A stretch of DNA of 59,795 nt, counting the filler, from Sphacelaria rigidula (taxonomy: Eukaryota): the NCBI GenBank assembly GCA_964200075.2. It is 10 parts of 10 records of this genome, joined end to end, with 100 filler letters (N's around TTAATTAATTAA, not from the genome) between each part and the next. Parts side by side here need not be neighbours in the genome. Positions count along the whole stretch, not along the records: positions 23,961 to 29,850 come from CAXNAA020023702.1; 9 more parts are not named here. One strand, 5' to 3'. Below the pieces are notes generated by a model, which searched no databases, was not told the DNA's origin, and was given only the letters and a program-made list of their open reading frames with translations. Position numbers and translations under genes: made by a program. This document shows, piece after piece, positions 5,891 to 54,708 of this stretch. The first letter of the stretch is position 1, and each line of letters begins with the position of its first letter.

Positions 5891-5990
5891 NNNNNNNNNN
5901 NNNNNNNNNNNNNNNNNNNNNNNNNNNNNNNNNNTTAATTAATTAANNNNNNNNNNNNNNNNNNNNNNNNNNNNNNNNNNNNNNNNNNNN
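5891..5990. other. Artificial scaffold-joining linker (first of nine)
   Basis: N44-TTAATTAATTAA-N44 (stops in six frames). Identical copies at 11881, 17871, 23861, 29851, 35840, 41829, 47818 and 53807. Confidence 0.98.
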
Positions 5991-8544: not shown

Positions 8545-9056
8545 TGTGTGTGTTGTTGTTCGTGTTGTCATCCCATACGTTCTCAACGTCGGTCTACACC
8601 TTTCGGTGTATGTGGGCGCCCCAGTCGGGGTCACACCGGAAGAAGGCCAACACAGGAGTTTTTCCTTCACCTTCCTTCTGCGGTGCTTGCCTTCCCTTTT
8701 TATCGCGAGAGGGGTTCAGCGGTCCCTTTCCCTCGTCGACCGTGAAGCCGAATTTCGTGTACGCAAGACGTAAGCCACTCTCCACTGTTGGGCACTGTGT
8801 GATGAAAAATCCAAGATCGCTGCGAGACTCGAACGCACGACCCAACCGTCAGAAGGTTTCGAGGTTACCAGACATATCAAACGGTCCTTTTCCCTCGTTG
8901 ACCGTCGAGTCGAATTTTGCGTACCTACGACGTGGTCGCTCTCCACTGTTGGGCATTATGTGAAAAAAAAATCCCAGATTGTCCCGAGACTCGAGCCCAC
9001 GACCCATTTGACGCAATGTTTCTAGGTTACCATCTGAGCCACTGGCGCGACCGGCC
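8545..9056 (-). mobile_element. tRNA-derived SINE, family A, with internal partial duplication
   Basis: Minus-strand head with A box TGGCTCAGATGG, B box-like GGCTCGAGTC and (AAC)/(AC) tail. Segment ~8720-8870 repeats at ~8882-9031. Homologues at 40143-40637 and 58752-58985. Confidence 0.8.
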
Positions 9057-11700: not shown

Positions 11701-11980
11701 GATTATAATAGAGGTAACTCGAACTCGGTTCCCAGTTTCCTGGCTTGTTTTGTTCTATTTTTTCGAGTGAAAGTGATGACGATTTTATGGATAGGACAAA
11801 TAATGATTCGTCAGGAAATTACTTGGGTTTAGTATCATGAGTTGACTCGTGATAAATAAATCCCAAAGACTCATTTTCACNNNNNNNNNNNNNNNNNNNN
11901 NNNNNNNNNNNNNNNNNNNNNNNNTTAATTAATTAANNNNNNNNNNNNNNNNNNNNNNNNNNNNNNNNNNNNNNNNNNNN

Positions 11981-17345: not shown

Positions 17346-19535
17346 GCGAACAAAGAAACAGACCCGTCAAAATACTGTTCTAGTCCTTCTTCGTTGTTTC
17401 ACGCCCTAAAAAAGAGCTAGGCGGTTAAGGTTGACATATTGGAATAACTTTCTCTGCTCCCTGAGATGGTTCCCAGATATCTTCGCGTTGTCCGGCAGCC
17501 GCAGACTTTCTTTTGACCAAGCTTTCATTTTTGTCTGAGAAAACGGTAAAACATAGGCACAGGACTCATCATACATGGCGATGATTTTGTAGTGAACTCA
17601 ACTATCTGCGCGAAGCGCGATTATGGCCGGGCATTCAAGATCGGCACCCGTCAAACACCGAGGACCCGTTTGAAATCAGCCGAAGGACTGAAACATGATA
17701 AATGTACTGTTTCACGGTCTGTACTGCAGCACAAACACACTCCCTTCCCGTCTCATATGTGCTGTACGAGCTGGTTCAGATTGAACGCCCAATAACAACA
17801 AATTGTGCGAATTGAGGTTTTACTCCGAGATGAGGTTCAAGCCTAAAACAGTGCTTTCCCCACACTTTCANNNNNNNNNNNNNNNNNNNNNNNNNNNNNN
17901 NNNNNNNNNNNNNNTTAATTAATTAANNNNNNNNNNNNNNNNNNNNNNNNNNNNNNNNNNNNNNNNNNNNAGCTCGCGCTTTGCCTCACTGGGGGGGAAC
18001 CACATATTCCATTCACGACATGTACCGCCGCGCCTCGGTCGTCTAAAGTGGTGACGGCAGTCGATATCGATACGGTACGGGACAGCTGATTTAATCCGCG
18101 ATTCCAGAATGCCAGACAGGTACTGCGGGAGAGAATGGTTCATCTCCCGAGACTACGGTATCGTTTCAATGGAGAGGAGGGGATGAGAATACGGCAAGAA
18201 AAAACAATGAAAAAAGTCTACAGAAATTGCCAGAGATAACCCCCGGGTGTAGCATTCGAACAGAAAGTAAACTGCGAGCAAGGCCATGTACGAATATGGA
18301 CAAGTAGGTAGAACAAGGCGTCGCTACCAATCAAGAAGAGAGCGATGAAAATAGATCGGCAGGAGTGCCCAAGGAGCAGCATCAAAAAAGAGTTCAACAG
18401 CACCACCGACAGCTATAGAACGGGCAGGATAAACGGCGCCCTCTGGAGCGGTGCAGGGGATCCCAGGACACCAGAACGATCACCTATATCGCCGAAGACC
18501 AACACTGCAGTAATAACAACCCACGACGTACGACACCTCACCGACACTTACACTACAGCAACACTCCGCTGTACTGTGCTGTTCTTGTGCTCAATTCGTG
18601 CAGTGCAACGCGTTTCACCTCAAGGCCTTGGCGCTGCTCCGAACTCACCCGCTGTCCCTTCACGCGGCGCGTGTGCGCCACAGCGCCTGCTGCCGTCATC
18701 ACGGCGCCGCCGGCCAAGATTAGACTTGCCGGAACGTTGCCGTGGGCTTGGTGGCAAACCGTCGCTAAAACCTGCAGCCCCGCGCCGCGTTCCGCCATTT
18801 CTTGCAGGGAGGGCAGTCTGGCCCACATCCCCGAGTCGACTCGACGACTCAGCCACGACGTGACCCACACACCGGCCGCAACTACCCCAGCAACACCCAC
18901 ACAGCACGCCACCTGTTGGGGGAGTGGAGGCAAACGTGGACGGTGCACATGTGCACCAAGGGAACAACGTCGGTACCGTCAGTACGGGAAAGTACAGGGC
19001 CGACGAGTTTACGCGGACCAAGGACAGTCATTGGTGGCGGTGCTAAGGTTAGGCATAGATGACGCGAACGGACGACAGACGCATGCTCCTGCCAGATAAA
19101 CTTGTATGCCATTTTCGCATTTCGAGCCGGCACGCCTTGTGTTTGGTGCTAAAATAGACGCTGGAACGTCAAAATGAAAGGGGGGTTCGGTTGTCAAGCG
19201 AGGTCGCGTTCTTGTTGGAGGATCGAGCGGGCTCAACAGAGAACAACACACGTGCCGACACGACAGAGACGTCTACTCTTTTTGAAACTGCTAAACGGGA
19301 GTCCAAAATCGTCATGATGTTTCGAAGCTGATTGGTGCAGGGTGTAGACTAAAAATTAAAACGAAAAAGTTAAGACGAAAACGAAAAGTCGTGGAGACAG
19401 ATTGCCGCTCATCTATTTCGGCCACACTATTTTCAAAGGGTATGAGCTCCCACCCATGAGCCCAACGGAAGTGAAGCACCAAACTGCGATTTGCATACAC
19501 TACACGAGGGAAAAAGAAAAAACAAATAATAATAA

Positions 19536-23697: not shown

Positions 23698-23860
23698 AAG
23701 GTAAGGGTACGTTCTGTAGGGTATGAGATTCCGTACAGAGTTTACAAAAATATCGGGTACCGGTATGGAAGTCTCACAGAGTTTACAGAACTGTCGGGTA
23801 CCGGTATGAAAGTCTTACAGACTTTACAGAACGTGTCGGGTACGGTACGGGAGGCTTACA
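23698..23860 (-). mobile_element. Truncated copy of the 3555-4019 element
   Basis: acagaactgtcgggtaccggtatgaaagtctt units, cut by the scaffold end. Confidence 0.75.
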
Positions 23861-23960
23861 NNNNNNNNNNNNNNNNNNNNNNNNNNNNNNNNNNNNNNNN
23901 NNNNTTAATTAATTAANNNNNNNNNNNNNNNNNNNNNNNNNNNNNNNNNNNNNNNNNNNN

Positions 23961-26900
23961 GGAGATGGGAAGCAGCTCTTAGCTGCAACTAAGAAAGATC
24001 CAGTAGCGCTATGGAGAGTAGTAGAAAGCATATGTTTATATCCTGCGGCTACTACTACGGAACAGGTTGAGGATTCTGCACTGAATGATTATGTTAATTT
24101 CCCTGCATGTCCATATAAGCTGGACATATATGTATATAATGAGCGTTATAAAATTATTAGAAATAATTATTTAAAACATATTGGGCAATTATCTAATTAC
24201 TCTAGTCTTAAGCATTATACGGATAGAATTAAAGCTAATAAATTTGAAGCTGTAATCAAACGAGTACAAGCTGATCTGTTAGAGACTAAGGGTACATCAT
24301 ATACCATAGAAAGGGTTATGAATTTACTCGAAGAGTTGGACCTGCAGTTAGATACCAAGAAGCCTGTAGGTACGCAAGTATATGGAGCATGGGGAACTAA
24401 AGTTCGTAACAGGAAAAGAGAAGAGTCTAAGGTGAAGACTGAGTCCAAGGACAAGGGTGCACAAGATGATGGGGGTGCACAAGATCATAAGGGTGCACAA
24501 GATCATAAGGATGCACAAGATCATAAGGGTGCTGAAGAGAACAAGAAGCCGAGACCAAGTGGTGGTAGTGGTGGTGATGGTGAAAGTCGTGTGTGTCATC
24601 ACTGTCGGCTTCCAGGGCATCTCAAGAAGGATTGTCAAGTGTTGCGGGCACAGGCACTGAGTGGTAAAGGATATAGGTGCTGCGAGGATGTACCTGCCAA
24701 GCAGAATTTCATCTGTGCAAAGGGTGACGTTGGTGCTAGCAATATATATGAACCGTGTGTGCCGATATTGAGCTACCCATCGTACTGCGGTAGTGTGCGA
24801 CGCAATGATGAGGTCTTAGAGTTCACGTGGGATCCCGGATCTCAGGAGACGATTACTAGCTATCCACACACACTGTCTAATAAAGTGAAAGGCCCAAGAA
24901 TAGCATTTGATTCGATGGGTGGGTTAACAAGCAGTTGTGTGAAGGGTGATCTGGGTCCATTTGGCAGTGCTTATCTTGGACCACCTGGACAGGATATTAT
25001 ATTGTTGTCCCAAGCATCCATGAAGAAGCAGTTTGGATCTGATATGCATGTGTATTATGATAATGAAGGAAACTTCTATGATATCACACTGCATGGTGTA
25101 GTTTATCGGTTTGAAGCTGACGAGAATGAGAACACTGACAAACCTCTGTACAAACTGAAGTTACCTGTGAGCGAGATCCATATAAACACTGTGCACAAGA
25201 ACGAAGAGGGGCTGTCGCGTCGAGAGCGAGAGAAGAATCGTCGATGCATCAGACTTATTTCTGATGCAGGGTATAACAATGTTAAAGAGATGCTGACACA
25301 TGGAATGATTACTGACTGTGATGAGACTTCAACTGAAGTTGCAGAGGCGCTGCGAGTGCATGGCTATCCTGCGGGATGGCATCAAGGCAAGACGGTTACC
25401 AAGTCATCCAAGTTACCTCATGTGGAGCCAGCGCTGTCATATCTGATCAAGCAACAAGACATGGAACTGGACCTGATGTTTATAGCTGGTGTTGGTTTTC
25501 TTATCTCTGTGACGCGCCCGTTGAGTATGACTGTTGTCACTCATATAGGGGGAAAGAGTGCGCCGATATTACGCAAGGCTCTACAGAGTGTATTGAAACT
25601 GTATGATCAGCGAGGCTTTAAGCTGCGGCGTATTACTGTGGATGGTGAGAGTGGTATTGGTCAACTGGATGAATGGTTGTCAACGCGCAACATTCAGTTG
25701 GATCAACGCACTGCTGGAGAGCATGTCAAGTTAGTAGAGCGCAAGATTCGCTTAATTAAGGAGCGTGTGCGTTGCCATCTATCAGCTCTACCATTCAAGC
25801 TACCTTATTCACTGCTGAAGTGGTTGGTGATGTATTGTGTGTATAATATCAATATGATACCATACCATGATGGAGCGGGGCTATGGGTCACACCAAGGGA
25901 GATGTTTACTGGGCGCAAGTGTAACCGTAAGAGAGATCTGTATTCTTTCGGTGAATATGTCCAAGTAAAGACAGTGGATAGTGTTGACTCCAATTCAGTA
26001 GAACTACCTCGCACTGAAGGAGGAATAGTGTTACTACCTACTGGGTGCATTGATGGGGGTGTTATGATTTTGCTGCTGAGATCCATGCGTGTTGTGCGTC
26101 GTACACAGATGACTAGGCTTCCTATGCCAGATACAGTCATTCAGTATCTGACGGCGTTTGCGTTGAGTCAGAATAAGCAAATTCCACAACAGCCCAGCTA
26201 TATTGTTGGAACACGTGCACTAGCAGACATTGATGACGATGAGGACATCTATGAAGATGAGTTTGAAGATGGAGCCGAGGTTGTGCCAGAACACGTTGAT
26301 CGTGTACCTGAACATGATGTAGAGGAGTGGATTGAGAATGTGCATGAGTATACTGAGGAGGAAGTCGTGTATGAATTTATGACTCCTGATCACCCTCAAC
26401 CGCCCCAACAAGGTGAAAATATTGATGTTGAGCAAGAAGTTGAAACTACTGTGGCTGTACCGTTGGCTATTGAGGACGATGTTGAGTTGGTAGAACTGGA
26501 ACCACCTGCACGACATGTGCTGGAAGCTGAGGCTGTACCTATTGAACCTGATCCACCACCCGCTGATGAAGGAGCTATCCTCCGTAGAGGAAGACGTGAG
26601 CGACGAACTCCAGCTCGGTATGTGAACAACATGACTTTTGCACAGGCGAAGGAGAAGCATGGTCATCTGGTAGAAGAAGCACAGGCACTAGAAGCACAGG
26701 CTTTCATTGCAAGAGATGTATTTGATCCAGTGTACCGACGGGATGTACCAGCTGATAAAGTTATTATCCCTTCGAAAGACATATACAGTGAAAAGTTAGA
26801 TTCAGAAGGAAAGTTAATACGAGTCAAAGGGAGGTATGTTGCCGGAGGTCATCGACAAGATCGATCTGTATATGATGATGTTAGTTCACCGACAGTAGCG

Positions 26901-28214
26901 TCCGAAGCAATCTTCATTAATGCTGCATTAGCTGCGAAAGAAAAGAGGTGTGTAGTAGCGTTGGATGTAGGCACTGCATATTTATATGCGCACAATCATT
27001 TTGAGAATTATATGGAGCTCAAGGCCCCGTTTGCTGCTGCGATTATTAAGCAAAACCCAAAGTGGAAGAAGTATCTCGATTCGAAGGGCAAAATGGTTGT
27101 TAGGTTGAAGAAAGCTCTGTATGGATGTATAGAGTCAGCTAGGTTATGGTATGAACATATAACTAATGTACTCAAGGAACTATCTTTTAAGGCGAACGCG
27201 TATGAGCCATGTGTACTCAATACTATAATGGATGGCGAGCAGGTGACTGTGTCTCTGCATGTGGATGATCTTTTTGTGTCGAGTGTATCTGAGAAGAACG
27301 TGATGAAGGTGGTCGAGTTCCTTCAAGCCAAGTTTGAGAAGATTACAGTGCACAGAGGAAAAATACTGACATACTTGGGAATGATGTTTGATTTTTCAAA
27401 GGAGGGCGAAGTGACCATTAGTATGGACCGATATATTGAAGATATTATTGCGCAGTGGAATAGTGATGCTAAGGGTTCCGCTTTGACGCCAGCGACAGGG
27501 GTGCTGTTCAATGTGGACACAGATAGTCCCATCCTATCTAAAAAGGAAAGTGAGAGATTTCATTCTACAGTTGCAAAGCTACTATATATTGCAAAGCGAG
27601 TACGTCCAGATATCTTAACTGCTGTGACAGCACTGACTACTCGAGTTCAAGATCCTCGTGAAGCCGATTTGGAGAAGTTAGCTCGTATTATTAGGTACTT
27701 GAAGGCATCGAAGCATGTGAAGTTAGTGTTGCGATGCGATGATAAAATTACTGTTAATTCATACGTTGACGCGTCGTATGGAGTTCACCCAGATATGAAG
27801 AGTCATAGTGGTTCTGTGGTGAGTTTAGGAGAGGGTGCTGTAAGTGCAGGCTCAACTAAGCAGAAAATTAATACAAAGTCGTCATGTGAGGCGGAGTTAA
27901 CTGCAGTAGCTGATAAGATCGGTAAGGCCATATGGATCCGTAATTATTTAATTGATCAGGGATATGATCCCGGACCAGTGGTACTTCATCAGGATAATCA
28001 GGCGACTATGCAACTACTACAGAAGGGTTACCCAGCAAGTGACCGCACACGCCACATCAACATAAAATATTTTTTCGTGAATGATTTAATACATCGGGGA
28101 GAGGTGAAGATTGTGTACTTGGAGACGGGAGATATGGTTGCAGATGGGATGACCAAGCCACTCCAAGGAGATTTATTCCGGCGATTCCGCACTAAGGTGC
28201 AAGGAGGAAAATAA
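23961..28214 (+). CDS. Ty1/copia gag-pol polyprotein (CoDi-like), uninterrupted
   Basis: Frame is open from the scaffold start. Domain order is copia: CCHC knuckle (CHHCRLPGHLKKDC), PR (WDPGS), IN (LDLMF, VDGE, EHVKLVERKIR), RT (DVGTAYL, LKKALYG, LHVDDL), RNase H (YVDASY, EAEL, QDNQ, ADGMTKPL). Confidence 0.97.
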   Translation, partial: GDGKQLLAATKKDPVALWRVVESICLYPAATTTEQVEDSALNDYVNFPACPYKLDIYVYNERYKIIRNNYLKHIGQLSNYSSLKHYTDRIKANKFEAVIKRVQADLLETKGTSYTIERVMNLLEELDLQLDTKKPVGTQVYGAWGTKVRNRKREESKVKTESKDKGAQDDGGAQDHKGAQDHKDAQDHKGAEENKKPRPSGGSGGDGESRVCHHCRLPGHLKKDCQVLRAQALSGKGYRCCEDVPAKQNFICAKGDVGASNIYEPCVPILSYPSYCGSVRRNDEVLEFTWDPGSQETITSYPHTLSNKVKGPRIAFDSMGGLTSSCVKGDLGPFGSAYLGPPGQDIILLSQASMKKQFGSDMHVYYDNEGNFYDITLHGVVYRFEADENENTDKPLYKLKLPVSEIHINTVHKNEEGLSRREREKNRRCIRLISDAGYNNVKEMLTHGMITDCDETSTEVAEALRVHGYPAGWHQGKTVTKSSKLPHVEPALSYLIKQQDMELDLMFIAGVGFLISVTRPLSMTVVTHIGGKSAPILRKALQSVLKLYDQRGFKLRRITVDGESGIGQLDEWLSTRNIQLDQRTAGEHVKLVERKIRLIKERVRCHLSALPFKLPYSLLKWLVMYCVYNINMIPYHDGAGLWVTPREMFTGRKCNRKRDLYSFGEYVQVKTVDSVDSNSVELPRTEGGIVLLPTGCIDGGVMILLLRSMRVVRRTQMTRLPMPDTVIQYLTAFALSQNKQIPQQPSYIVGTRALADIDDDEDIYEDEFEDGAEVVPEHVDRVPEHDVEEWIENVHEYTEEEVVYEFMTPDHPQPPQQGENIDVEQEVETTVAVPLAIEDDVELVELEPPARHVLEAEAVPIEPDPPPADEGAILRRGRRERRTPARYVNNMTFAQAKEKHGHLVEEAQALEAQAFIARDVFDPVYRRDVPADKVIIPSKDIYSEKLDSEGKLIRVKGRYVAGGHRQDRSVYDDVSSPTVASEAIFINAALAAKEKRCVVALDVGTAYLYAHNHFENYMELKAPFAAAIIKQNPKWKKYLDSKGKMVVRLKKALYGCIESARLWYEHITNVLKELSFKANAYEPCVLNTIMDGEQVTVSLHVDDLFVSSVSEKNVMKVVEFLQAKFEKITVHRGKILTYLGMMFDFSKEGEVTISMDRYIEDIIAQWNSDAKGSALTPATGVLFNVDTDSPILSKKESERFHSTVAKLLYIAKRVRPDILTAVTALTTRVQDPREADLEKLARIIRYLKASKHVKLVLRCDDKITVNSYVDASYGVHPDMKSHSGSVVSLGEGAVSAGSTKQKINTKSSCEAELTAVADKIGKAIWIRNYLIDQGYDPGPVVLHQDNQATMQLLQKGYPASDRTRHINIKYFFVNDLIHRGEVKIVYLETGDMVADGMTKPLQGDLFRRFRTKVQGGK
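24452..24532 (+). repeat. 18-nt coding tandem repeat in gag (GAQDHK-like x4)
   Basis: aagggtgcacaagatcat units. Confidence 0.9.
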
Positions 28215-28366
28215 ATACTTTTCTATAATTATGCGATGCATGAATAATTTAGGAATTAGGAATTAATAATGCTGTTCTAATGTTACTGCTATTCTATTGT
28301 GTACCTATGCTGCTGTGTAGTATCGTGTCACTATATATTTTGCTATCACCGTACACGGGAAGGGTG

Positions 28367-28667
28367 TGTTGGAATATGATGATTCCGCCCGTGATCGGTT
28401 GCAGCTAATGTTTCTAGTTTGTGCGTTATGTGTCATTTGTGGCATACATTTGATGCATATAAATGGACGCTATTTTCTAGAAATTTCCATGCTGCTGTTT
28501 GCCATGATTGCATGTGTTGTTTTGTATAATTAATTAGTCTACTGATAGTCAAGTAATCTGTCTGAGGACATTTGTTTAGGTGAATTGCGATTCACCATTG
28601 ATAAGATAGTAGGCAAATTGTTATCCTGTCATTGGTAAGTGACAGAATAGTCTGTGTAATTTTAACA
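28367..28667 (+). mobile_element. Copia LTR (301 bp)
   Basis: Follows PPT GGGAAGGG (28357-28364). Termini TGTTGGAAT...ATTTTAACA, TATAAA at 28458. Only one copy is present, so the 3' boundary rests on the terminal inverted repeat. Confidence 0.8.
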
Positions 28668-28683
28668 TAGACTAATTAATTAT
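28668..28683 (+). promoter_or_regulatory. Putative self-priming primer-binding site
   Basis: TAGACTAATTAATTAT is the exact reverse complement of 28526-28541 inside the LTR. Confidence 0.7.
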
Positions 28684-28744
28684 CCGTTCTTTCTCTGATC
28701 GCGATCAGAGTGTTATAGAAGGACGAGATTTTGACTCAGACAAG

Positions 28745-29850
28745 ATGTCTGGCAAGTATGATGTGAAGAAGAGAGGCTTCGAGAAGCCTGATTCACAAGA
28801 GAAGAGAAAGGATGCTCTCTCTCAAGACCTAAAATTCAAGAACAATGAAACGAAGAATAAAATTCCTGAAGATTCTTTAGTTGCTGCGGCAAATAAGAAT
28901 GCAAAAATTAGGTTTAATAAGAAGTCTAATACTACTGCTCTACAAACGAATTTCCTTGAGGTAAAGGAGATTGTCTTGAACGACCTCATTGAGAAGTTCC
29001 CACTGGTAGCACCAAGACTCCATCCGGACTATATTGGAGAGGAAACTAATACTCCATCTTTGACTCTGCTACAAGTTCATCATAAGGAGAAGTGTAGAGA
29101 AGAAGGAAGGAGAATAGTGAAAGTACAGTCTGAGCTATGGGATGAGGTTAAGCAACGTCGGCAGGTACGGAGGCTTCCGGTAACTCGAAAGTCGGATACT
29201 TCATCCAGTGTGAGTTCATCCAAATCGAGTAAGGCTAAGCCGGTTTCATCTACTGAACTTGATGAATATGATGATTTTGATCTTGAAGATGATGATTCTG
29301 ATGATGGGGATGATGTTGAAGGTCAGTCAGAACTACTCTTTGAGCCATATGAAGAGGCTTTTCAGGCTTGGAAAGTAGCATTCCGACAGCAGTGTCTGGA
29401 AAACTGTAGAATATCTGCTATGAAGGAGTATGAGTTACTCACCAAGACAGCTGCTAAGGAAGAGGAAGAGAGCAAGGAGCAGTCAGTGGCATTATTTTCT
29501 GCAATACAACGGCTGTTGGACTATCAGCTTCTTAGGATGTTACAGAAGCATGAAGATGGGAAGCAGCTCTTAGCTGCAACTAAGAAAGATCCAGTAGCGC
29601 TATGGAGAGTAGTAGAAAGTATATGTTTATATCCTGCGGCTACTACTACGGAACAGGTTGAGGATTCCCTGCATGTCCATATAAGCTGGACATATATGTA
29701 TATAATGAGCGTTATAAAATCATTAGAAATAATTATTTAAAACACATTGGGCAATTATCTAATTACTCTAGTCTTAAGCATTATACGGATAGAATTAAAG
29801 CTAATAAATTTGAAGCTGTAATCAATTGAGTACAAGCTGATCTGTTAGAG
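28745..29850 (+). CDS. Copia gag N-terminus (second copy, frameshifted near 29668)
   Basis: ATG 78 nt after the LTR. 29552-29850 repeats 23961-24284 in frame but with a 25-bp deletion and several substitutions. Confidence 0.9.
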
Positions 29851-30029
29851 NNNNNNNNNNNNNNNNNNNNNNNNNNNNNNNNNNNNNNNNNNNNTTAATT
29901 AATTAANNNNNNNNNNNNNNNNNNNNNNNNNNNNNNNNNNNNNNNNNNNNTTTTTTTTTTTTTTTCCCCCTTCCCCTCTCCCCCCCCCCCCCCCCCCCCT
30001 TCTCCGGCCGGAGCGGGGGGACCCCGTGT

Positions 30030-30061
<32 letters not shown>

Positions 30062-30125
30062 CGTACTCATTTGTTGCTTGCCTTAGTCATTTGACAATTG
30101 ACCACGCATCCCTTTCGAGACGGAT
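30030..30125 (-). mobile_element. 3' end of LINE family abutting oligo(C)
   Basis: Reverse complement of 47717-47790 and 55440-55570, next to a ~30-nt G run. Confidence 0.75.
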
Positions 30126-30299
30126 CGCGGGAAGGGGGGGGGGGGGCAATGAAGCTAGTACCGTCACCTACCCGCCGGCATCCCCGCAGCCGCTGATTCA
30201 CGCGGTAGAACCTGAGCCGCTACCGACACCCCCGTCGCCAACACAGTAGTGTTTAGCGCTTGGTCAATTAGAACCTTCTAGGAATTTCATCACTTGATT

Positions 30300-33548: not shown

Positions 33549-35839
33549 TCAAAGCGGTGCGTTGACATCATGTGTGCGATCGATGTTATGTTGAATTCCG
33601 CGGCGGAGGCCTTTGGACGTGAGTCGCTGAAGACACCAAGACCCGCGTGGTGCGGATGGACTGGTGGCATGGAGCTCTGGGCGGAGCTTGAGCTGCACAC
33701 GTCCGGGGTCATCGATGAAGCGCACGACGTATGTGTCAGGCGCGATGAGGCCTGTGGAATGGGTCTGGCCCAGCCACCAGAGGTCATCGCTGCCTTTGTA
33801 CCAGAGGTAGGCGCCTTTGGGGAGGATTTCCTGTTTCGCGCGAGTCTTTTCTTGCCAATGCTTGGTGGCTACCAATTCATAGCCATCGGCGACAAAGCTC
33901 AAACCTTCCTCACGGTGAAGTTTGCGTGCTGCTGCGCCGCGGCGCATGTTGCGATATTTCTTTTTGTTAGCAAGATATTGCTGTTGAGGTTGTGTCCAGT
34001 ACAGGAGAACAGCTCGGCGTTGCAGCTGAAGGTCGGATTCGCATTCCCAAGACGCTCTCCGAAGACCTTGCCAGTGAGTTTTGTACATGACAGCAATCTT
34101 ACCGCCTCGACGACGGGTGATCTGGTGACCAGAAATGTGGGACACGGCGAGACGATGGGGTTGTTCCGTCACATCGTCGGTAGTAACGTGATGAGGTGGT
34201 GATCTAGTCGAATAGCTGTTAAGTACGTACTGCGTAAGACCGGCAGGCAGATATTTGGGCATGTCTCTAGTGTCATGCGGATTGATGGAAGGTTTACAAC
34301 GGTGCACAGAGACGCGAGATTTCGCGTTACGTCCCTGAAGATCGCGAGGGAGATCGAGATGAAGAAGTTTGTCAACAACAGGTTTGCCTTCAGGTGATGA
34401 TGGCGAGGGCCCTACTGTCAGAATTTTGAATGGTCCTGTCCAGTTGAGGGATAGCTTAGTCTTCAAGACTGTCCTGTTGGCGGCTTTGTCGGCGCCTTGG
34501 CGGATGGTTGACAAGCTGTTGTAAACCCAGACCCAATCGCCAACCTTCCAAGTAGGTCGTTTGTGCATCAGGTTGTAGAGAGCATTACTAGATATCTCAA
34601 GAGGGGAGGCGTTGATAGCGTGTTGTTCACGCACGAGAGTGACAGCTTTGCGCTGGCGTGCACGTGCCAGGTCATGGTAGGATAGCTGATCCTGATCCAA
34701 ACCTTGGTGGCCATCAAAGGTGTGTCTCTTAAACACTGTGATGGGCAGGCGGGGGTAGCGGCCGAGATGTAACTCGTTCGGAGAAAGGTCGGTAGCAGCG
34801 TTGACCGAGTTGTTATAAGACAGCATGATATGTGAGAGATGGAAATCCCAATCGTTTTGTTGATCGTTGACTACCATAGACAGCATCTGGACCATGGTGT
34901 GGTTAACTCTTTCAGTACTACGGTTACTATTGGGGTGATAAGCGCTCGTGGCTATCTTTCGAATGCCCAGGAGCGTATACAATTCGTCCGAGAGATCGGA
35001 GCAGAATTGCTGACCATTATCGGAGAGAAGCCGTTTCGGGCAACCATAGTGCCTGGTATAGTCATGAACTAAGATGTTAGCGGTGCCTGCCGCTGCGAAG
35101 TCTCCAGTGATGACGGCGTACATGGCTGCGTGACGACTGAAACGGTCGGTGAAGAGCAAGATGTAGGTGTTGCCACGGTCAGTGGGCGGTAACGGACCGA
35201 AATAGTTGAAAGACACGAGGTGATCAGGAGCGTTGGGAAGTGCCGTCGAAATGACTGGCCAACGTATAGTCTGTCGTGAGGTTTTGCGAGCTTGACACTT
35301 GAAGCATCGCCGAATCCAGAAACGGGTGGACACTTCCATGCCGATCCACCAGTAAAAGCGTTCGAGTAACGCTAATGTGCGCGTGACATCAAGGTGGCAA
35401 GACAGGTCAGTGTGGCAGCCTTTCAGTACCCACGGTCGCTTAAAAAATGGGACATATATTCGAGTGGGTGCATCATCGAGAAGGCGTGCATGACGTCCAG
35501 TGGGCGCGGATGAAGTTACACCCGCTGAGGCGTAGGGTGGCGGACAAGCAGTTCAATTCCGTCATCAGTTGTGAAGATAGTACCTTTACGTGCGAGTTCG
35601 TACACTTCAGCGGCGATTGGTGGTGGCAGTGTGCCAACCGGGGTCAATACATTGGCCGGGATAGGGGCGCAGCCAGCACGGAGGTATCGCATGGTAGCGC
35701 GGCATAATGGCTCTACTTGTTGTTCACGAGCCCAATCACGATAGGAGTAGCTGGCGAGAAATTCGCGCAGTTGGCCATCCGCCGGAGAGCCGACCAGACA
35801 TGGTGGCTCAGGAAGCGGTGAAACAGGCGACGGGGGGGG
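33549..35839 (-). mobile_element. Ty3/gypsy pol 3' part: integrase with long C-terminal extension
   Basis: CHTDLSCH...CFKC Zn motif, YILLFTDRFS, LLSDNG, TERVN, WTGPFKI, then chromo-like YKTHWQGLRRASWE. 596-aa ORF at 33549-35339. The expected first catalytic Asp reads Asn (VSFNYFGP). Confidence 0.92.
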
Positions 35840-38447
35840 NNNNNNNNNNNNNNNNNNNNNNNNNNNNNNNNNNNNNNNNNNNNTTAATTAATTAANNNNN
35901 NNNNNNNNNNNNNNNNNNNNNNNNNNNNNNNNNNNNNNNCTTTGTTCCTCTCTTTTTTTTTCTCTCCCAGTTGTGGATTGTTGTGACCTTGTCTGTTTTC
36001 CCGACGGGCCAGCTACACTTCTTTTTCGTTTTTTTTTGTTGTTGCTCGTATGAGCACGTGATTTGTTCGCTTTTTAATTTTCGTTGTGTCAATAGGCCCT
36101 GATCGTCGATTTTTGCTTTTATTGCGTTGTCGTTTATTCTTTTATTTTTTTTTCGTGTTCTAACACGTCAATCGTATTTTGAGTTGGTCTTTTCCTCCCA
36201 TGTGGATGGAGGTCAATCGTCTTCGCAGACATGTGCTGCTAGAGAGGTTCCCTATTGTACTGTGCAGTAGGCGGTAGTGCACCCTCTGGAATTGCCACTG
36301 CAGTGCGTGTCGTACGCCTCACCAGAAGAGAGATTCTTGATGTGCACTGTAAAAAGTGGCGGGGAAGTCACTTTCTTCACCGAAAAAGTAAGCATCCCTG
36401 TAACTCCATGATTTGAAAAAAAAAAAGGAGGAAAAAGATAGAACGAGAAAAGGAGGGCAGATATCCGTGATCCTCGCCCCGAAAGTTATTTGCTCTGAAA
36501 ATATTGCCACAAAATAAAAAAATGAATCGGGCTTACCACGGGTCTTGAAGCCTTTTTAGTTCGTGCGCAATAAAGCGGGAGGATCCGTGATGCTCGAACC
36601 GAAATAGATTCGCACGGGAAAATTTTTCGATGTTTTTTTTTTGCAGGCTTACTGCCGGTCTGAAAGCTTTTCATTCATCCGCAACAAAGGGTTGGCGAAC
36701 AAACATGCGCTTGTAGTGTATATTGTATGGTCGATGGCGATGTGGTATGTATAGGGTGCGAATAATGTACCCCCTCTGACCCTTCTTTCATCTGTCCCAG
36801 ATATGCTACCTGTGTGTATACCTGGCTTGACATTTCCTGAATTTTGAGCTGTCATTTTCCAATCAAGTGTTGAATCTCGTGTCATTTTCTGGTCGAGTGT
36901 AACTGCTATGCCCATGAATGAAGACCCTAGCGACCAGAAATCCGTGGGCAAAAAACAATGAAAAAAAACGCGGGGGGATGATGAGGAATAATGAAGAATT
37001 CACAGACTGACCGGACATGTGCGCCGAACCTCTGCCGAACAAAACACACGCGTCATCCCAAGTTAGCTAGGTTTAGTATGCGATATCGGTCATTTTTTCG
37101 CGCATTCTTCTCGAGACGAGAAGCAAACCGGCCTGTGGAACTTCACAGCCCCCCGTAAACACACCAGACCCATTCGGTGTGGCGACGGAGTTGCTCAATT
37201 CGCCACAGCGGATCCGAAAAGCCCCAGAACATTGGAGAAAACGCATTTATTAGTATATTTCGTATTTGATTCGGCACGCGTCCCGGTACCTGTCGCTACA
37301 CTGAGTCGTTCTGGTATGTGGAAAGCGCACGCATCAAACCGCAGTTCAATTCTCTGCTTCGGTACCGAGGAAAATGCGTTGAAAGATGGGCACAACAACA
37401 ACCTGAGCAGCAGCTTCTACCCTCCTGTTGCCACCCTGCGTACAGGTGTACAGCAACGCCAGTCACAGGTTTGTTGTGGAATGTACTACAGTAATATAAG
37501 TAGATTTTGTATGAGCGTCATCGTCGTTACGAGTGACGTGTGTACTTGTGATTGATACTGATTGGCTCATTTAGGTTTCATTTTTTCCGCATTCAAATGA
37601 CTTGTGTAGTTGGTCGGTCCATTTTCCAGAAACATTGTGCCCAAAATCGGGCCCCATTGACGGGGATGACCGTACCACCCTTCAATAAAGGGTATATACA
37701 AAATAGCACATACATACAATTTATTACTATCCATACCCGATTTTCAGCGGATACGACCGCGCTTAATCTTTTCTTAAGATTGCGGATGTACAGGGCACAC
37801 ACAGCTTCCACATCAGTTTGGGGTTTTCAGAGAGCACTCTACGCGAAGGACCGGGAGTTGAGGGGGCCCTGCTACAGTAGGTCTAGGACGAGTCTCTATC
37901 TCGTGACAATGCAAGGGCTGCTTTTTCCTTGTTTCCTTGAAGGAAGGAGGAAACCTCACCCAACACCGATCACACATGCGGGTTCGTTTGCCGATCACCC
38001 AGGGGCTTGGGTAGACTGCCTCCCGGCAGTCATCTCAAACCACTGTTCATCTCGGAAGGTTGAAAAAATACCACCCGCCCCTCGATTCGTCCGTCCCTGA
38101 TGTCTCAGCTCTCGATGACTTGTTTTTAGGTACAAAGTTGTGGGGTAGGCGCCTCGAGCGTGTTCGGAAATCTTTGCTCAAGCCAGTGCTGGGGTTGAAC
38201 TCACTAAAACTCCTTGTCAACGTGGCGCAGTGCACGCGCCGCCCTCATGAACTTTGGTACTGGGGGCAGGGGTGCCGTCCCATAGAATGAGAAACGTGAC
38301 CATAACCAGGGCGGGAGATTGGAAGATGACAGTTCCGGGGGGTTGACAGACGGGAGTCGTGGGTGGGCGAGCCGAGTTATAGGGAGGTGGTGAATCACAC
38401 CACACCCTGGATAATGACAAAATATTACACTATCATGAAGTGTACTG

Positions 38448-40142: not shown

Positions 40143-40637
40143 TGTGTGTGTCGTCATCCCATTAATTCTGGACGTCAGTCTACATCGTTCGGTATATGTG
40201 AGCGCGTCAGTCGGGGTCACACATGAGGGAGGCCAACACGGGGTTTTTTATTTCTCTTTTTTTCTTCTGTCCTTGTACTTTACCTTCGTCCTGCGGTCCT
40301 CTATTAGTCAACAACTTTCAGTATATATGTGGGCGCATTAGCCGTGGTCACACAGGAGGAAGGCCAACACAGGATATTTTTTCTTCTTTGGTTTTAGTAC
40401 TCCACCTTTCTTCTGCGGTGCTTTTTCTCCTTTTTTTAATTGCGAGAGGGGTTCAGCAGTCTCTCCCTCGTCGACCGTGAAGTCGATTTTTTTGCACGCA
40501 CGATATAGTCGCTCTCCACTGTTGGGCATTGTGTGATAAACAATCCCAGATCATGTGACTGCACCGAGATTCGAACCCACGACCCAACCTTTAGGAGTTT
40601 GGTCGAAGTTACCAGCTGAACCACCAGGGCGACCGGC
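40143..40637 (-). mobile_element. tRNA-derived SINE, family A
   Basis: Minus-strand head GCCGGTCGCCCTGGTGGTTCAGCTGG...GGGTTCGAATCTC. Body homologous to 8545-9056. Confidence 0.85.
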
Positions 40638-41818: not shown

Positions 41819-43487
41819 ACATGTAGATNNNNNNNNNNNNNNNNNNNNNNNNNNNNNNNNNNNNNNNNNNNNTTAATTAATTAANNNNNNNNNNNNNNNN
41901 NNNNNNNNNNNNNNNNNNNNNNNNNNNNGGTCTTCCGTGCAAGAGATATGCCACTTCAACCCCATATTTTGTATGAACCCCAAAATTTAAAATCGGCTTT
42001 TAGTTGTCAAAAGCTATGAGGAGATGAAAAATTGGGACCATATTTCGAATATTCGGTGTGGATACGAAGATTTTAATTGTCCGGGTTTCTCATCCCCAAT
42101 AAAATATCCATCCCCAATAAAAGATCCATCCCCAATTTGTAAGATTCCGTGTTATACCACAAACAACTGTTGGAAAAACCTAGGCACAAAGCAGTCTATT
42201 TTCCTAATTTTGAATATCAGTTTCTATAGCAAACATACGTACAAGCGAAAACTATACGGTTTATCGTTGTGGGTAATGAACTGAACTGGCTAACATAGTC
42301 CATCACAGTACAGTACTGTAGTAAGGCAAGTAGGAAGGGAATTTTTTGTAACTAATGATTATTGAGAGAGAACTTGATCCGGATACGTTGACTTGTCAGC
42401 AGGCAATGGGGTGTTATACGTGTGTGCAGGGCATTGTCATTTTGTTTGTCGGTATTTGGAAGTGTTTTGTTTCATTCTGAGAGTCATTGCAGCCCATGAT
42501 CGACAACGTCGATCACTCACAGCTTTCACTCTTCTTTTTGTACCTATTTCGGAAAGGACTAGGTGTTACTTTATTCGGCCGACTAAGCGGCCACAGCACA
42601 CTCGATCTCTAATCTGCTGTTCTTATATATTCTGCTGCGAACAGCAAAGTAAGGTTAACGGCTACCGTGCAACTCTTCGAGCCTGTCTAGTGAGACAGTT
42701 GGCCCACCAAGTTTATTTATACTGTACCACACGCCACCAGTCCCTTCAAAACCTACCGTGAGGAACATTTGATTCTAAAGTTTGGGATCGACAGATCTCA
42801 CTACCCGCCACTGATTCTCAACGAAAAAAAAATTCTGCTTCAATTTTGAACCCGACGGAGGCTAACCAGTTGTAAGAGCTCCTAGGAGTACTGGGAACAT
42901 CTCGCAATCGTCGTCGCTGCCGTCGTCCCCGCGGGTTGATTGCGGCACCCGCGAAGGACCACACTCCTCCCGACTAGCACCGCACTCATCCCTGCTGCTG
43001 CTGCTGCTGTACTCCTCCTCCTCATCATCGCTATAGCCGACGAGTAGGTTTGCTCTCGTGCTGGAACCCTCCATATGCGCATCTGTACTGTGTACTGTGT
43101 ACTGTGTACTGTCAGTAGTCTGCAGTGTGTGCATGTGTGTACGGACTGTTGTTTATTATACATTACTGCTGTGCAGATCAGATGAGGCGATGAGAAGGTC
43201 TGAGAGTCCGCGAAGCAGCAACGAATGCGCGCTGGGGTTTCGCACACAGAAGGAATCCCCAGTGGTTGAAGATATTGCCGAAAAGAAGGGTCTTGGATTG
43301 GAAACATATCATGCGCGAAAGGAGACAGGATCCTACACGTTACACTTCCAGAGTTAAATGTGTATCTCGAAAATTAATTATCGATGAGGGACCACGTGGG
43401 GAGCCCTGATTTGACTTACCTTTTGTACAGAAGTCCCCATGTGATCCCCGTCCCTCATCGTAGTACTAGCCTGGCTGAACGTTTGAC

Positions 43488-43646
43488 GCGAAATGTAAAA
43501 CGTGAAACGTGAAACGTGAAACGTGAAACGTGAAACGTGAAACGTGAAACGTGAAACGTGAAACGTGAAACGTGAAACGTGAAACGTGAAACGTGAAACG
43601 TGAAACGTGAAACGTGAAACGTGAACGTGTAACGTGTAGGACCCTG
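43488..43646. repeat. (CGTGAAA)n heptamer array ending at a CAGGG-type terminus
   Basis: 17 perfect units at 43501-43619 with degenerate flanking units, then gtaggaccctg. Confidence 0.93.
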
Positions 43647-47800: not shown

Positions 47801-49085
47801 CAACGACCACCCACCACNNNNNNNNNNNNNNNNNNNNNNNNNNNNNNNNNNNNNNNNNNNNTTAATTAATTAANNNNNNNNNNNNNNNNNNNNNNNNNNN
47901 NNNNNNNNNNNNNNNNNCCCAAAAGGGGGGATTTAAAATGGAAAACAAAAAAAGACAAAAAAAAAAGGAAGCCCCCCCCCCCCCCCCCCCCCCCTCATTG
48001 TCGAGAGCGTCCGAGGTGGGGCGTTCGTTTTACTGTTCTAGTACCCAACCCTCATTCTGTAAAGGAGGGGCGGTGGATCATGATTTGCATTTAGAAAGGC
48101 CCTTCGTATTATCCCGCAATCTCCAATTGGACAAGAGGCATACGGACTTCCCTCCCTCCTGGAGATTGCATACCCTCCGCGATATGCGCGTGTACTATCT
48201 GACAGTGGGTGCCGTGTGTTGAAGTGCGCAAAATGCTCATATTCTGCATCAAAATGCCACAAAAGACAGGGCTCGCCTTTCCGACTGCAACGAAAATTGG
48301 ATGGAAATGTGTAAGGTGCTACAGCAGGTCGCATTCCACTTTCACGAACACGTTCACACGAGCTCACCATGATTCTCTGTACAGTTCTACTGTTGCCTAC
48401 TCGTCTGTACACGCGCATACGATACTACCACTTCAGCTTCATCAGAATGGGCTTCCGATGGGGTATTTTGTAATGGAACCATGTACGCTGACCGTCTTTC
48501 CTCCCTTCCTCAATGGCACGTGCCAGCGCCGTTGGCACACACGCGTTGGCGCGTGCCTCTTAGTGCGGTGACATCAGGGAGGCAACATGTTCGTTTTCAG
48601 TCGACCAGTTCAGCAAACCGACACCAGGGTCCAAATAGAGTCAGTACACCATGTGCGTTTGTGCTGCAAGCTCACGGCGCTACCCCGCAGGCGGTGGCGA
48701 TTGAGTTGTCGCCGTGAGCTTTGACCATGAGGTGTTACACGGCTAGAGGGATACAGTAGGCTGTAACCTGCCTTGTTCCCTCTTCCGAACAGGAGGTACT
48801 GACTGCTGTAAGAGTGGGCATTCCGGGCTTCAGGATCATAACAGCGGACACCTCATCGTTGGAAGGAAAGCCGCACGCAAGTCTACAATGCGCTGCGTGC
48901 AGCGACATGCAGATGAATATTCAGGTGATTCGCGTTGGATAGTGCAAGAGTGCAGCAATATTAAGAGGTGAACACGGGACAGATCTCAGTCTCTCGTGCT
49001 CTACACGTCGTGCTGCACACGATGAGGGCAAGACGAGAGGCAATCTGCCTGGACAGGAGGCTGAGATCCTTGCGCACAAACTCAC

Positions 49086-53770: not shown

Positions 53771-54708
53771 GGGTGTACTCATGATCATGCATGCCATAGT
53801 CATAAGNNNNNNNNNNNNNNNNNNNNNNNNNNNNNNNNNNNNNNNNNNNNTTAATTAATTAANNNNNNNNNNNNNNNNNNNNNNNNNNNNNNNNNNNNNN
53901 NNNNNNCCCCCCCCCCCTTCACTCCTCGTGGCACCGACTCCTCCCCTGCTCAAGGTCCGCGCGGTGTTGCGTGCATTAATCTCGCGGTTGGCGTCCGCTG
54001 AGTTCCACGTTCACCGCCTATTCTAATTTTGCTCCCGATGTTGTTCCACCGCGAATCGTTTCAAAATTGATCGTTACAGACGGGCGAGGGAAACACGTAT
54101 GCCGACCTGTGCAGCAAAGCGGCCGGCTCCGAGGAGTGCGACCCGTCCGTACGCGGCGTCACTCGCTTCTGGGGTAACGACTTTGACACATACGAGGTGC
54201 GTGTGTACGATATACGCCAGATACGCACAATACGTGCGTCTACGAACGTACGGTATGTGTACAACAAGATGTAGACGGTACTGGTGTAAGGTATACGTGA
54301 GAAATGCGCGAAACCTACGCAAGATGTGAGTAACGATCTTACGATATCTTTATACATCAAACGTACGATGGAGTAGGCAAGACATGGGTACACGCGGGAC
54401 CTACACAAGTAGAACGTAGTCGGGACGCGCGTGAAATATACTATCAGACGTATGTAATACGTATACGAGACGTACGATAGGTATGAACTGTGGGCGTACA
54501 TGAGGATGGCGTTACGAGATGACGCATCGTGCAGCACAGTAGTCGCGCCCGTCTACAAACGGCTAGGGCTCGACCGAGCTGAGGGGTACCGCAACTTGAG
54601 TCCTGGATGTTACAAAGCAAGAAGATGTTGAGAGGGGCGGTACATACACGCCAAGGGTACACATGGCGTATAAATATGAACTGACGTTGATCCACAACGT
54701 TCCAACAG

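Follow-up and report, generated by a model that had tools for sequence, protein, structure and literature searches.

The window analysed here, a 59.8-kb stretch of DNA from the Sphacelaria rigidula assembly, carries an integrated, multi-copy Ty1/copia-type long terminal repeat (LTR) retrotransposon from a marine eukaryote. A 16-nt segment within the LTR is perfectly complementary to the 16 nt that directly follow the LTR, and related elements carry arm pairs of the same geometry. We consider it likely that this element primes its minus strand without a transfer RNA (tRNA) and, like Tf1, uses the 5' end of its own transcript; the transcript start, the RNA cut, the priming event and the pairing within one RNA are all predicted from sequence. 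An earlier reading of the window, made from the sequence alone (hereafter the sequence-only reading), had interpreted the complementarity as self-priming, and the comparisons described below support that interpretation. The features on which the argument depends are the following.

28526-28541, + strand: 5' arm, the proposed self-primer and putative first 16 nt of the transcript (start of R); exact complement of 28668-28683.
28668-28683, + strand: 3' arm, the proposed primer binding site (PBS), starting at the first base after the LTR; complement of 28526-28541.
28367-28667, + strand: LTR of 301 nt with a TG start and a CA end, delimited by unitig span, branch points and depth.
28357-28366, + strand: polypurine tract, GGGAAGGG followed by TG, abutting the LTR start; the purines occupy 28357-28364.
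28458-28463, + strand: TATAAA, identified in the sequence 68 nt upstream of the 5' arm; kept in related locus L001, not in L010.

The segment at 28668-28683 is the exact reverse complement of 28526-28541 at 16 of 16 nt and is its sole exact partner in the window. Even with up to two mismatches allowed, the two arms are the only matches to the 16-mer in the window, where 0.02 matches are expected from 100 shuffles and none of the shuffles yielded two or more. Position 28668 is the first base past the LTR, which gives the pairing the polarity needed for minus-strand priming, and the sequence after the LTR contains no TGG-type tRNA site. The sequence-only reading had described the complementarity, the polarity and the missing tRNA site in the same way. 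ARAGORN predicted no tRNA genes in the window, and no Rfam family was matched there.

The window holds one LTR copy, and the LTR edges were tested with Logan contigs of four public runs over 27400-29600. In run X2, a 301-nt unitig with a depth of 60.4 coincides exactly with 28367-28667, and an internal unitig of 5350 nt with a depth of 30.8 extends from 28638 via gag-pol to 28396, an LTR-to-internal depth ratio of 2:1. Contigs of unrelated sequence enter at 28367 (X1 and X2) or 28366 (X5) and exit at 28667 (X2); the left and the right flanks belong to different unitigs. Together, the branch points, the unrelated flanks and the depth indicate an integrated element with two LTRs at several insertion sites. 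The branch points also establish that the LTR spans 28367-28667, with the end that had been proposed at 28667, and that the 16-mer at 28668-28683 begins at the first post-LTR base. The polypurine tract lies directly before the branch point at 28367 and is kept in the window, in both L001 copies and in L010. In run X7, the only one guessed to be RNA, contigs cover parts of pol and gag, not the LTR.

The closest relatives among the loci compared are L001 and L010. L001, with 76% amino-acid identity, shares the LTR and has both arms unchanged. L010 also shares the LTR, and the first 7 nt of its PBS are unchanged up to the point where the contig ends. The 5' arm is unchanged in both loci, and the U3 sequence just upstream of it has diverged.

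Arm pairs in related elements

We compared 109 related loci. About 29 of these are circular-looking or tandem units with one long open reading frame (ORF) and 156-690 nt of non-coding sequence (2313 nt in one frameshifted unit). For each unit, the longest perfect inverted repeat of the non-coding region was determined with no positional prior. The top inverted repeat reaches at least 12 nt in 21 of the 29 units and at least 14 nt in 16, and the shuffle P value is ≤0.005 in 19. As a control, 250 coding windows of 550 nt were taken from the same elements; three reach 12 nt and none is longer. In almost every unit, a CA immediately precedes the downstream arm, and 2-60 nt separate this arm from the ORF start that follows; in two, the arm overlaps the ORF start. 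The upstream arm is located 46-224 nt further upstream of the downstream arm.

Six additional non-circular loci show the same arm pattern. One of them, L063, carries two real 900-nt LTRs that are 95% identical and end in AACA directly before the arm; the upstream arm is present in both LTRs and the downstream arm only once. Pooling all loci gives 28 distinct perfect arm pairs of 9-18 nt whose sequences differ between families. A CA lies before the first base of the downstream arm, or includes that base, in 25 of these pairs, and none of the downstream arms starts with TGG. A classical iMet-type (initiator methionine tRNA) PBS motif is absent from all 109 loci. The sequence-only reading had named related families as a place to look for compensatory change, and in these families complementarity is indeed kept while the arm sequences change.

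In a gag-pol tree of 44 sequences, elements with the arm pattern occur throughout the ingroup; the tree was built from a fast alignment with a midpoint root, and its topology is to be read loosely. The outgroup loci L098, L101 and L106 show no arm pattern. Several loci were uninformative because frameshifts caused the wrong ORF start to be taken.

The outer edge of the upstream arm offers a clue to the transcript start. In many eukaryotes, the initiator element has as its core the trinucleotide TCA, whose A is the +1 base. In 19 of the 28 distinct elements TCA occurs exactly at this edge, in one of two registers, where its frequency in these regions predicts about one (binomial P ~1e-21). A pyrimidine-A step is found at the edge in 27 of the 28. 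Under a Tf1-like model, a transcript that begins at the arm would be expected to show TCA at this edge, and the observed position of TCA provides indirect support for such a start. The TATAAA at 28458, to which the sequence-only reading had drawn attention, is present; that it sets the start is improbable, since TATAWA occurs within 100 nt upstream of the arm in only 3 of the 28 elements, as opposed to 19 with TCA. A TATA box at fixed spacing was rejected as the start determinant, as there is no conserved TATAWA at a fixed distance.

Most relatives appear circular in assembly, with terminal overlaps of 99-315 nt and one LTR per unit; they are the whole contigs L002, L007, L011, L015, L022, L026, L033, L035, L044, L045, L051, L057, L073, L078, L079, L081, L082, L087, L093 and L101. 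Collapse of the LTRs by assemblers explains most of the circular-looking contigs. L005, L025 and L039 are multi-unit tandems, and the units of L025 are only 88% identical; these three could be real tandem arrays or one-LTR circles. The possibility that the related contigs are transcripts was rejected: none starts at its own upstream arm, and the terminal overlaps are assembler overlaps, not R repeats. L078-L109 are contigs of this clade in bins labelled as bacteria, e.g., Rickettsiales, Babeliales, Chlamydiaceae and Actinomycetes, which probably reflects mis-binning of high-copy protist DNA.

A model for priming and its alternatives

In the proposed mechanism, transcription would begin at 28526 or at an adjacent base, on a pyrimidine-A step that resembles an initiator. 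The initial 16 nt of the transcript would fold back across a structured R-U5 region of ~126 nt onto 28668-28683, and RNase H would cut after 28541. The freed 3' OH would then be extended, copying U5-R, and the first DNA base would be placed opposite 28667, which would set the LTR end. During plus-strand strong-stop synthesis the RNA primer would be copied as far as its 5' end, and the PBS would in this way be rewritten from the primer in each cycle. We infer this rewriting by analogy with retroviral replication in general and from one paper title concerning the Tf1 self primer, which is reportedly not removed. Rewriting of the PBS from the primer would explain why the duplexes are perfect, why their ends are sharp (at the LTR edge and TCA) and why they diverge freely between families.

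A broader version of the model concerns the clade, and we give it even chances. A large copia clade of marine and freshwater protists may have dropped tRNA primers altogether, each family being primed by its own capped RNA 5' end with a TCA-set start, and self-priming would then have originated independently of the Tf1/sushi group and of the plant TAR lineage. With the primer copied into the PBS every cycle, each family would have its own private pair of primer and PBS that evolve together.

The leader between the proposed start and the gag ATG contains several further predicted structures.

28579-28596, + strand: R-U5 hairpin 1 with a 7-bp stem; two base pairs are changed on both sides in L010 and pairing is kept.
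28626-28645, + strand: R-U5 hairpin 2; the stem is conserved in the window, L001 and L010.
28649-28673, + strand: local hairpin competing for the first 6-7 nt of the PBS, found in minimum free energy (MFE) and alifold structures.
28693-28710, + strand: 18-nt perfect palindrome or hairpin between the PBS and the gag ATG, evident in the sequence and formed in all folds.

A local hairpin that sequesters the PBS, analogous to the U5 inverted repeat (U5-IR), was considered as a clade feature and rejected; a local stem comparable to 28649-28673 is significant in only 2 of the 28 distinct elements and is thus family-specific. L001 keeps the hairpin at 28693-28710 with G-U changes, and a role of this palindrome in dimerisation or packaging is our guess.

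Several observations weigh against self-priming in this element. The duplex is AT-rich and has a 10-nt palindromic core, a caveat that the sequence-only reading had raised and that is real, so that in this element alone only 6 of the 16 positions tell an inverted from a direct repeat; the arms of the relatives are mostly non-palindromic. The window copy has a T at 28525, directly before the arm, that is not part of a TCA; in X1, X2 and X5 this position is a C, creating a CA step at -1/+1 of the proposed start. Among the relatives, L101 has no inverted repeat, L016 and L050 have no significant one, and six units have arms of only 9-10 nt that are not significant singly and share the same geometry. 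Folding is also unfavourable. Forcing the arms to pair raises the free energy of 28526-28744 from an MFE of -66.6 to -60.2 kcal/mol, and the probability of the arm pair is ~0. When 28526-28683 is folded on its own, the corresponding values are nearly tied (-45.6 and -45.2). RNAalifold, applied to three family members, instead joins the 5' arm to 28609-28624 and places part of the PBS in the local stem.

The segment at 28609-28624 lies in U5 and is an imperfect alternative partner of the 5' arm within the family of the window element. The alternative pairings at 28609-28624 and 28649-28673 may represent a switch between a closed and a primer-annealed form. Primer annealing in retroelements is usually chaperoned by nucleocapsid, and for this reason the unfavourable folding weakens the case for self-priming only mildly.

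The same arms could be the long-range closing stem of a 5' leader that serves packaging, dimerisation or translation control while another primer is used; the U5-AUG pairing of HIV-1 is a parallel. Such a stem would suit the position of the downstream arm, which in most relatives is within 2-60 nt of the ORF start or, in two, overlaps it. It would also suit the highly structured leader (z -4.6), whose hairpins show compensatory changes, and the existence of alternative pairings of the arms. We nevertheless find it unlikely, since a primer must anneal directly past the LTR end, and what lies there is the arm itself. Its sequence varies between elements and is never TGG at the start, so no common cellular primer fits. 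G-U pairs and mismatches would be expected in a closing stem, whereas the duplexes are perfectly Watson-Crick and end sharply at the LTR edge and at TCA. Somewhat less probable still is self-priming from the 3' LTR copy or from a second packaged RNA, with the upstream arm in U3 and the transcript start downstream of it, comparable to the 5'-3' cyclisation described for Ty1. In favour of this arrangement, the arm is itself TATA-like and AT-rich, and the TATAAA lies 68 nt upstream of it, which is a long spacing. The TCA and pyrimidine-A counts at precisely the arm edge fit an initiator at that base instead, and by the retroviral scheme extra upstream RNA on the primer would be copied past the PBS, hindering the second strand transfer.

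A host RNA could also provide the primer, either an internal tRNA fragment (a half-tRNA, as in copia, Ty5, Osser and FunCo1) or a small RNA that shares the upstream arm sequence. Some arms of the relatives contain a stretch that presumably resembles the tRNA-Lys anticodon loop. Half-tRNA primers are described for Ty1/copia lineages (PMC6317226; PMC5445492). This explanation is very improbable given that 28 different PBSs in related elements cannot all match conserved tRNAs and that each matches its own LTR perfectly. The 16-mer is, in addition, far more AT-rich than nuclear tRNA stems. Chance complementarity or an assembly artefact might be suspected for a sequence that is AT-rich, has a 10-nt palindromic core and comes from a collapsed contig. 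That suspicion is effectively refuted by the shuffles, none of 100 reaching the observed count, by the shuffle P values in 19 of 29 units, by the coding windows, only 3 of 250 of which reach 12 nt, and by three independent runs whose unitigs carry the same sequence. Self-priming from the 5' end of the element's own transcript remains the explanation that we favour.

Coding region and sequence context

The coding part identifies the element as copia-type, and its features are arranged along a single contig as follows.

23961-29850, + strand: element contig, the whole piece of 5890 nt, with N linkers on both sides; contains the gag 3' part, pol, 3' untranslated region, LTR, PBS and gag 5' part.
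24318-28214, + strand: pol part of the frame, 1298 aa from the first ATG, from the ORF list; 171 homologues.
24588-24638, + strand: weak CCHC zinc knuckle, nucleocapsid-like (Pfam zf-CCHC, E 0.031, below the cut-off).
25215-26237, + strand: integrase with N-terminal, catalytic core and C-terminal domains, recognised by its AlphaFold fold, upstream of the reverse transcriptase.
26742-27470, + strand: reverse transcriptase (RT) of copia type (Pfam RVT_2, E 2.6e-29, pol residues 809-1051).
28745-29740, + strand: gag-encoding start of the gag-pol frame, from the ORF list, with a capsid-like profile match.

The contig represents one Ty1/copia-type element whose assembly is circularly permuted and has its LTRs collapsed into a single copy. 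Its ends (23963-24284 and 29554-29850) overlap and are 98-99% identical; they differ by a 25-nt indel, and the second copy has an additional stop. Because the overlapping ends differ in this way, the contig mixes at least two element copies, and the indel causes the gag ORF of this copy to end early at 29740. Joining the contig ends at a period of 5591 nt produces a single 1686-aa gag-pol ORF and 530 nt of non-coding sequence; the uninterrupted frame is seen only after this joining.

RVT_2 is matched in all 20 aligned relatives and is the sole Pfam match there in the comparison of integrase, gag and RT. Pfam rve matches neither the window element nor any of the 20 aligned relatives, and sequence searches with PDB sequence profiles or with hhalign against the other integrase ORF of the window did not recover the integrase. 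Pol residues 300-640 were modelled with AlphaFold on the basis of 38 relatives, with a pLDDT of 86.5. Foldseek matched this model to the integrases of Rous sarcoma virus (RSV), prototype foamy virus (PFV) and human immunodeficiency virus (HIV) with E ~1e-9 and probability 1.00. The integrase of this clade thus escapes sequence profiles yet folds confidently as a three-domain retroviral-type integrase. Its position upstream of the RT corresponds to the Ty1/copia gene order and, together with RVT_2, confirms the copia-type assignment made in the sequence-only reading. The gag product is more weakly recognisable: a profile of the relatives gives a weak match to the Copia virus-like particle (VLP) capsid 8vvw (E 1.8e-4), and zf-CCHC matches occur in 4 of 20 relatives with E values down to 2.6e-5.

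Nearly all of the 171 pol homologues are on contigs of ~5-6 kb. The only named homologue is a 'Copia protein' of Porphyridium purpureum, with 44% identity over 38% of the query. Metagenome contigs contributed 546 confirmed related stretches. The relatives derive from marine and freshwater samples, and the runs that carry the element itself include marine metagenomes. No relative was found in the viral contigs scanned, and the ESM Atlas returned only generic RVT_2 clusters with no useful taxa.

The window is a composite of pieces of 5889-5890 nt, whose equal, descending lengths point to whole contigs from a fragmented assembly sorted by length. The pieces are separated every ~5990 nt by 100-nt joints, in which N surrounds a short all-frame stop spacer (5891-5990, 11881-11980, 17871-17970, 23861-23960, 29851-29950, 35840-35939, 41829-41928, 47818-47917 and 53807-53906), and features are not to be read across them. 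A neighbouring, unrelated contig encodes a 596-aa ORF on the - strand (33549-35339) with a Pfam rve match below the cut-off (E 2.5e-6), which looks like a second retroelement. The end of the piece preceding the element contains a 41-nt tandem repeat in 3 copies (23735-23857), and segments at 8557-8979 and 40143-40552, common to two other pieces, are 72-87% similar; these are other repeat families of the same assembly. Furthermore, there is an array of ~25 copies of a 7-nt unit at 43450-43639, and another piece starts with long G, C and T homopolymer runs (29951-30150).

Known and predicted self-priming elements and significance

To our knowledge, self-primed reverse transcription has been shown experimentally for Tf1 only, and for other groups it is a sequence-based prediction. 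In Tf1 of Schizosaccharomyces pombe, the first 11 nt of the transcript are described as pairing with the PBS, and RNase H as cutting between nt 11 and 12 (PMC7175516). Tf1/Tf2 and the Tf1/sushi group of Ty3/gypsy chromoviruses share with the window element a post-LTR PBS that is complementary to an LTR segment at the presumed transcript start, no tRNA-type site and a structured U5 between the arms. The duplex measures 16 nt in the window element and 9-18 nt in its clade, compared to 11 nt in Tf1. The superfamilies also differ: the window element, whose self-priming is predicted from sequence, has an RVT_2 RT with the integrase before it, in contrast to the Ty3/gypsy order (RT before integrase, with a chromodomain) by which the Tf1/sushi family is defined. 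We conclude that the element is Tf1-like in its predicted way of working and is not a member of Tf1/sushi.

Self-priming had been presented in the sequence-only reading as a departure for copia elements. It is not the first such proposal: the plant Ty1/copia lineage TAR is predicted to self-prime by Neumann et al. 2019, who cite an earlier proposal for Houba and Osr-1 (PMC6317226). As in the window element, self-priming of these Ty1/copia elements, TAR with Houba and Osr-1 included, is predicted from sequence (PMC6317226). TAR, compared here by its description, is a land-plant lineage, whereas the relatives of the window element are marine and freshwater and lack Pfam integrase or gag matches. 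Since self-priming is already predicted for TAR (PMC6317226), the elements described here represent a new member clade, not a new mechanism.

Other copia elements deviate from the tRNA scheme in different ways. Fungal GalEa is described as having no tRNA-type PBS and a Conserved Hairpin Site at the PBS position (PMC5445492). It resembles the window element in being a copia element with a structured site in place of a tRNA-type PBS; its authors report that they found no LTR sequence complementary to the hairpin site, whereas a complementary LTR segment is central here (PMC5445492). The half-tRNA-primed copia elements, i.e., copia itself, Osser, Bryco, Bianca and FunCo1, likewise have a PBS without a TGG start (PMC6317226; PMC5445492). 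Their sites match conserved internal tRNA segments and are common within lineages, in contrast to the family-own sequences matched by the element's own LTR in this clade. The diatom CoDi elements are, like the window element, copia-like elements of marine protists, with LTRs of 153-844 nt bounded by TG and CA and an overall size of 5.2-8.1 kb (PMC2806351). The sequence-only reading had raised the possibility that a similar arrangement is already reported for them; in its main text, the paper on these elements mentions neither tRNA, priming nor polypurine, and its sole 'PBS' is a buffer (PMC2806351). In the open-access literature searched, we found no copia clade of algae or protists for which self-priming is described.

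The general picture of LTR-element replication is unchanged by this analysis, because both the mechanism and its predicted occurrence in copia elements are already in print. What is added is a copia clade that is broad and abundant in the environment; its primer/PBS pairs, of which at least 28 are distinct, share one geometry and an initiator-like motif at the outer edge of the primer. These pairs form a natural covariation series that could teach the rules of self-priming, such as primer length, cut position and the role of U5 structure, and that could be used to test whether self-priming arose repeatedly. In practice, these elements will be missed or misjudged by any LTR-retrotransposon finder that demands a PBS complementary to a tRNA, and their collapsed, circular-looking contigs land in bacterial genome bins. 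If the model is true, private primer/PBS pairs could make the elements blind to host tRNA-fragment defences directed against tRNA-type primer sites.

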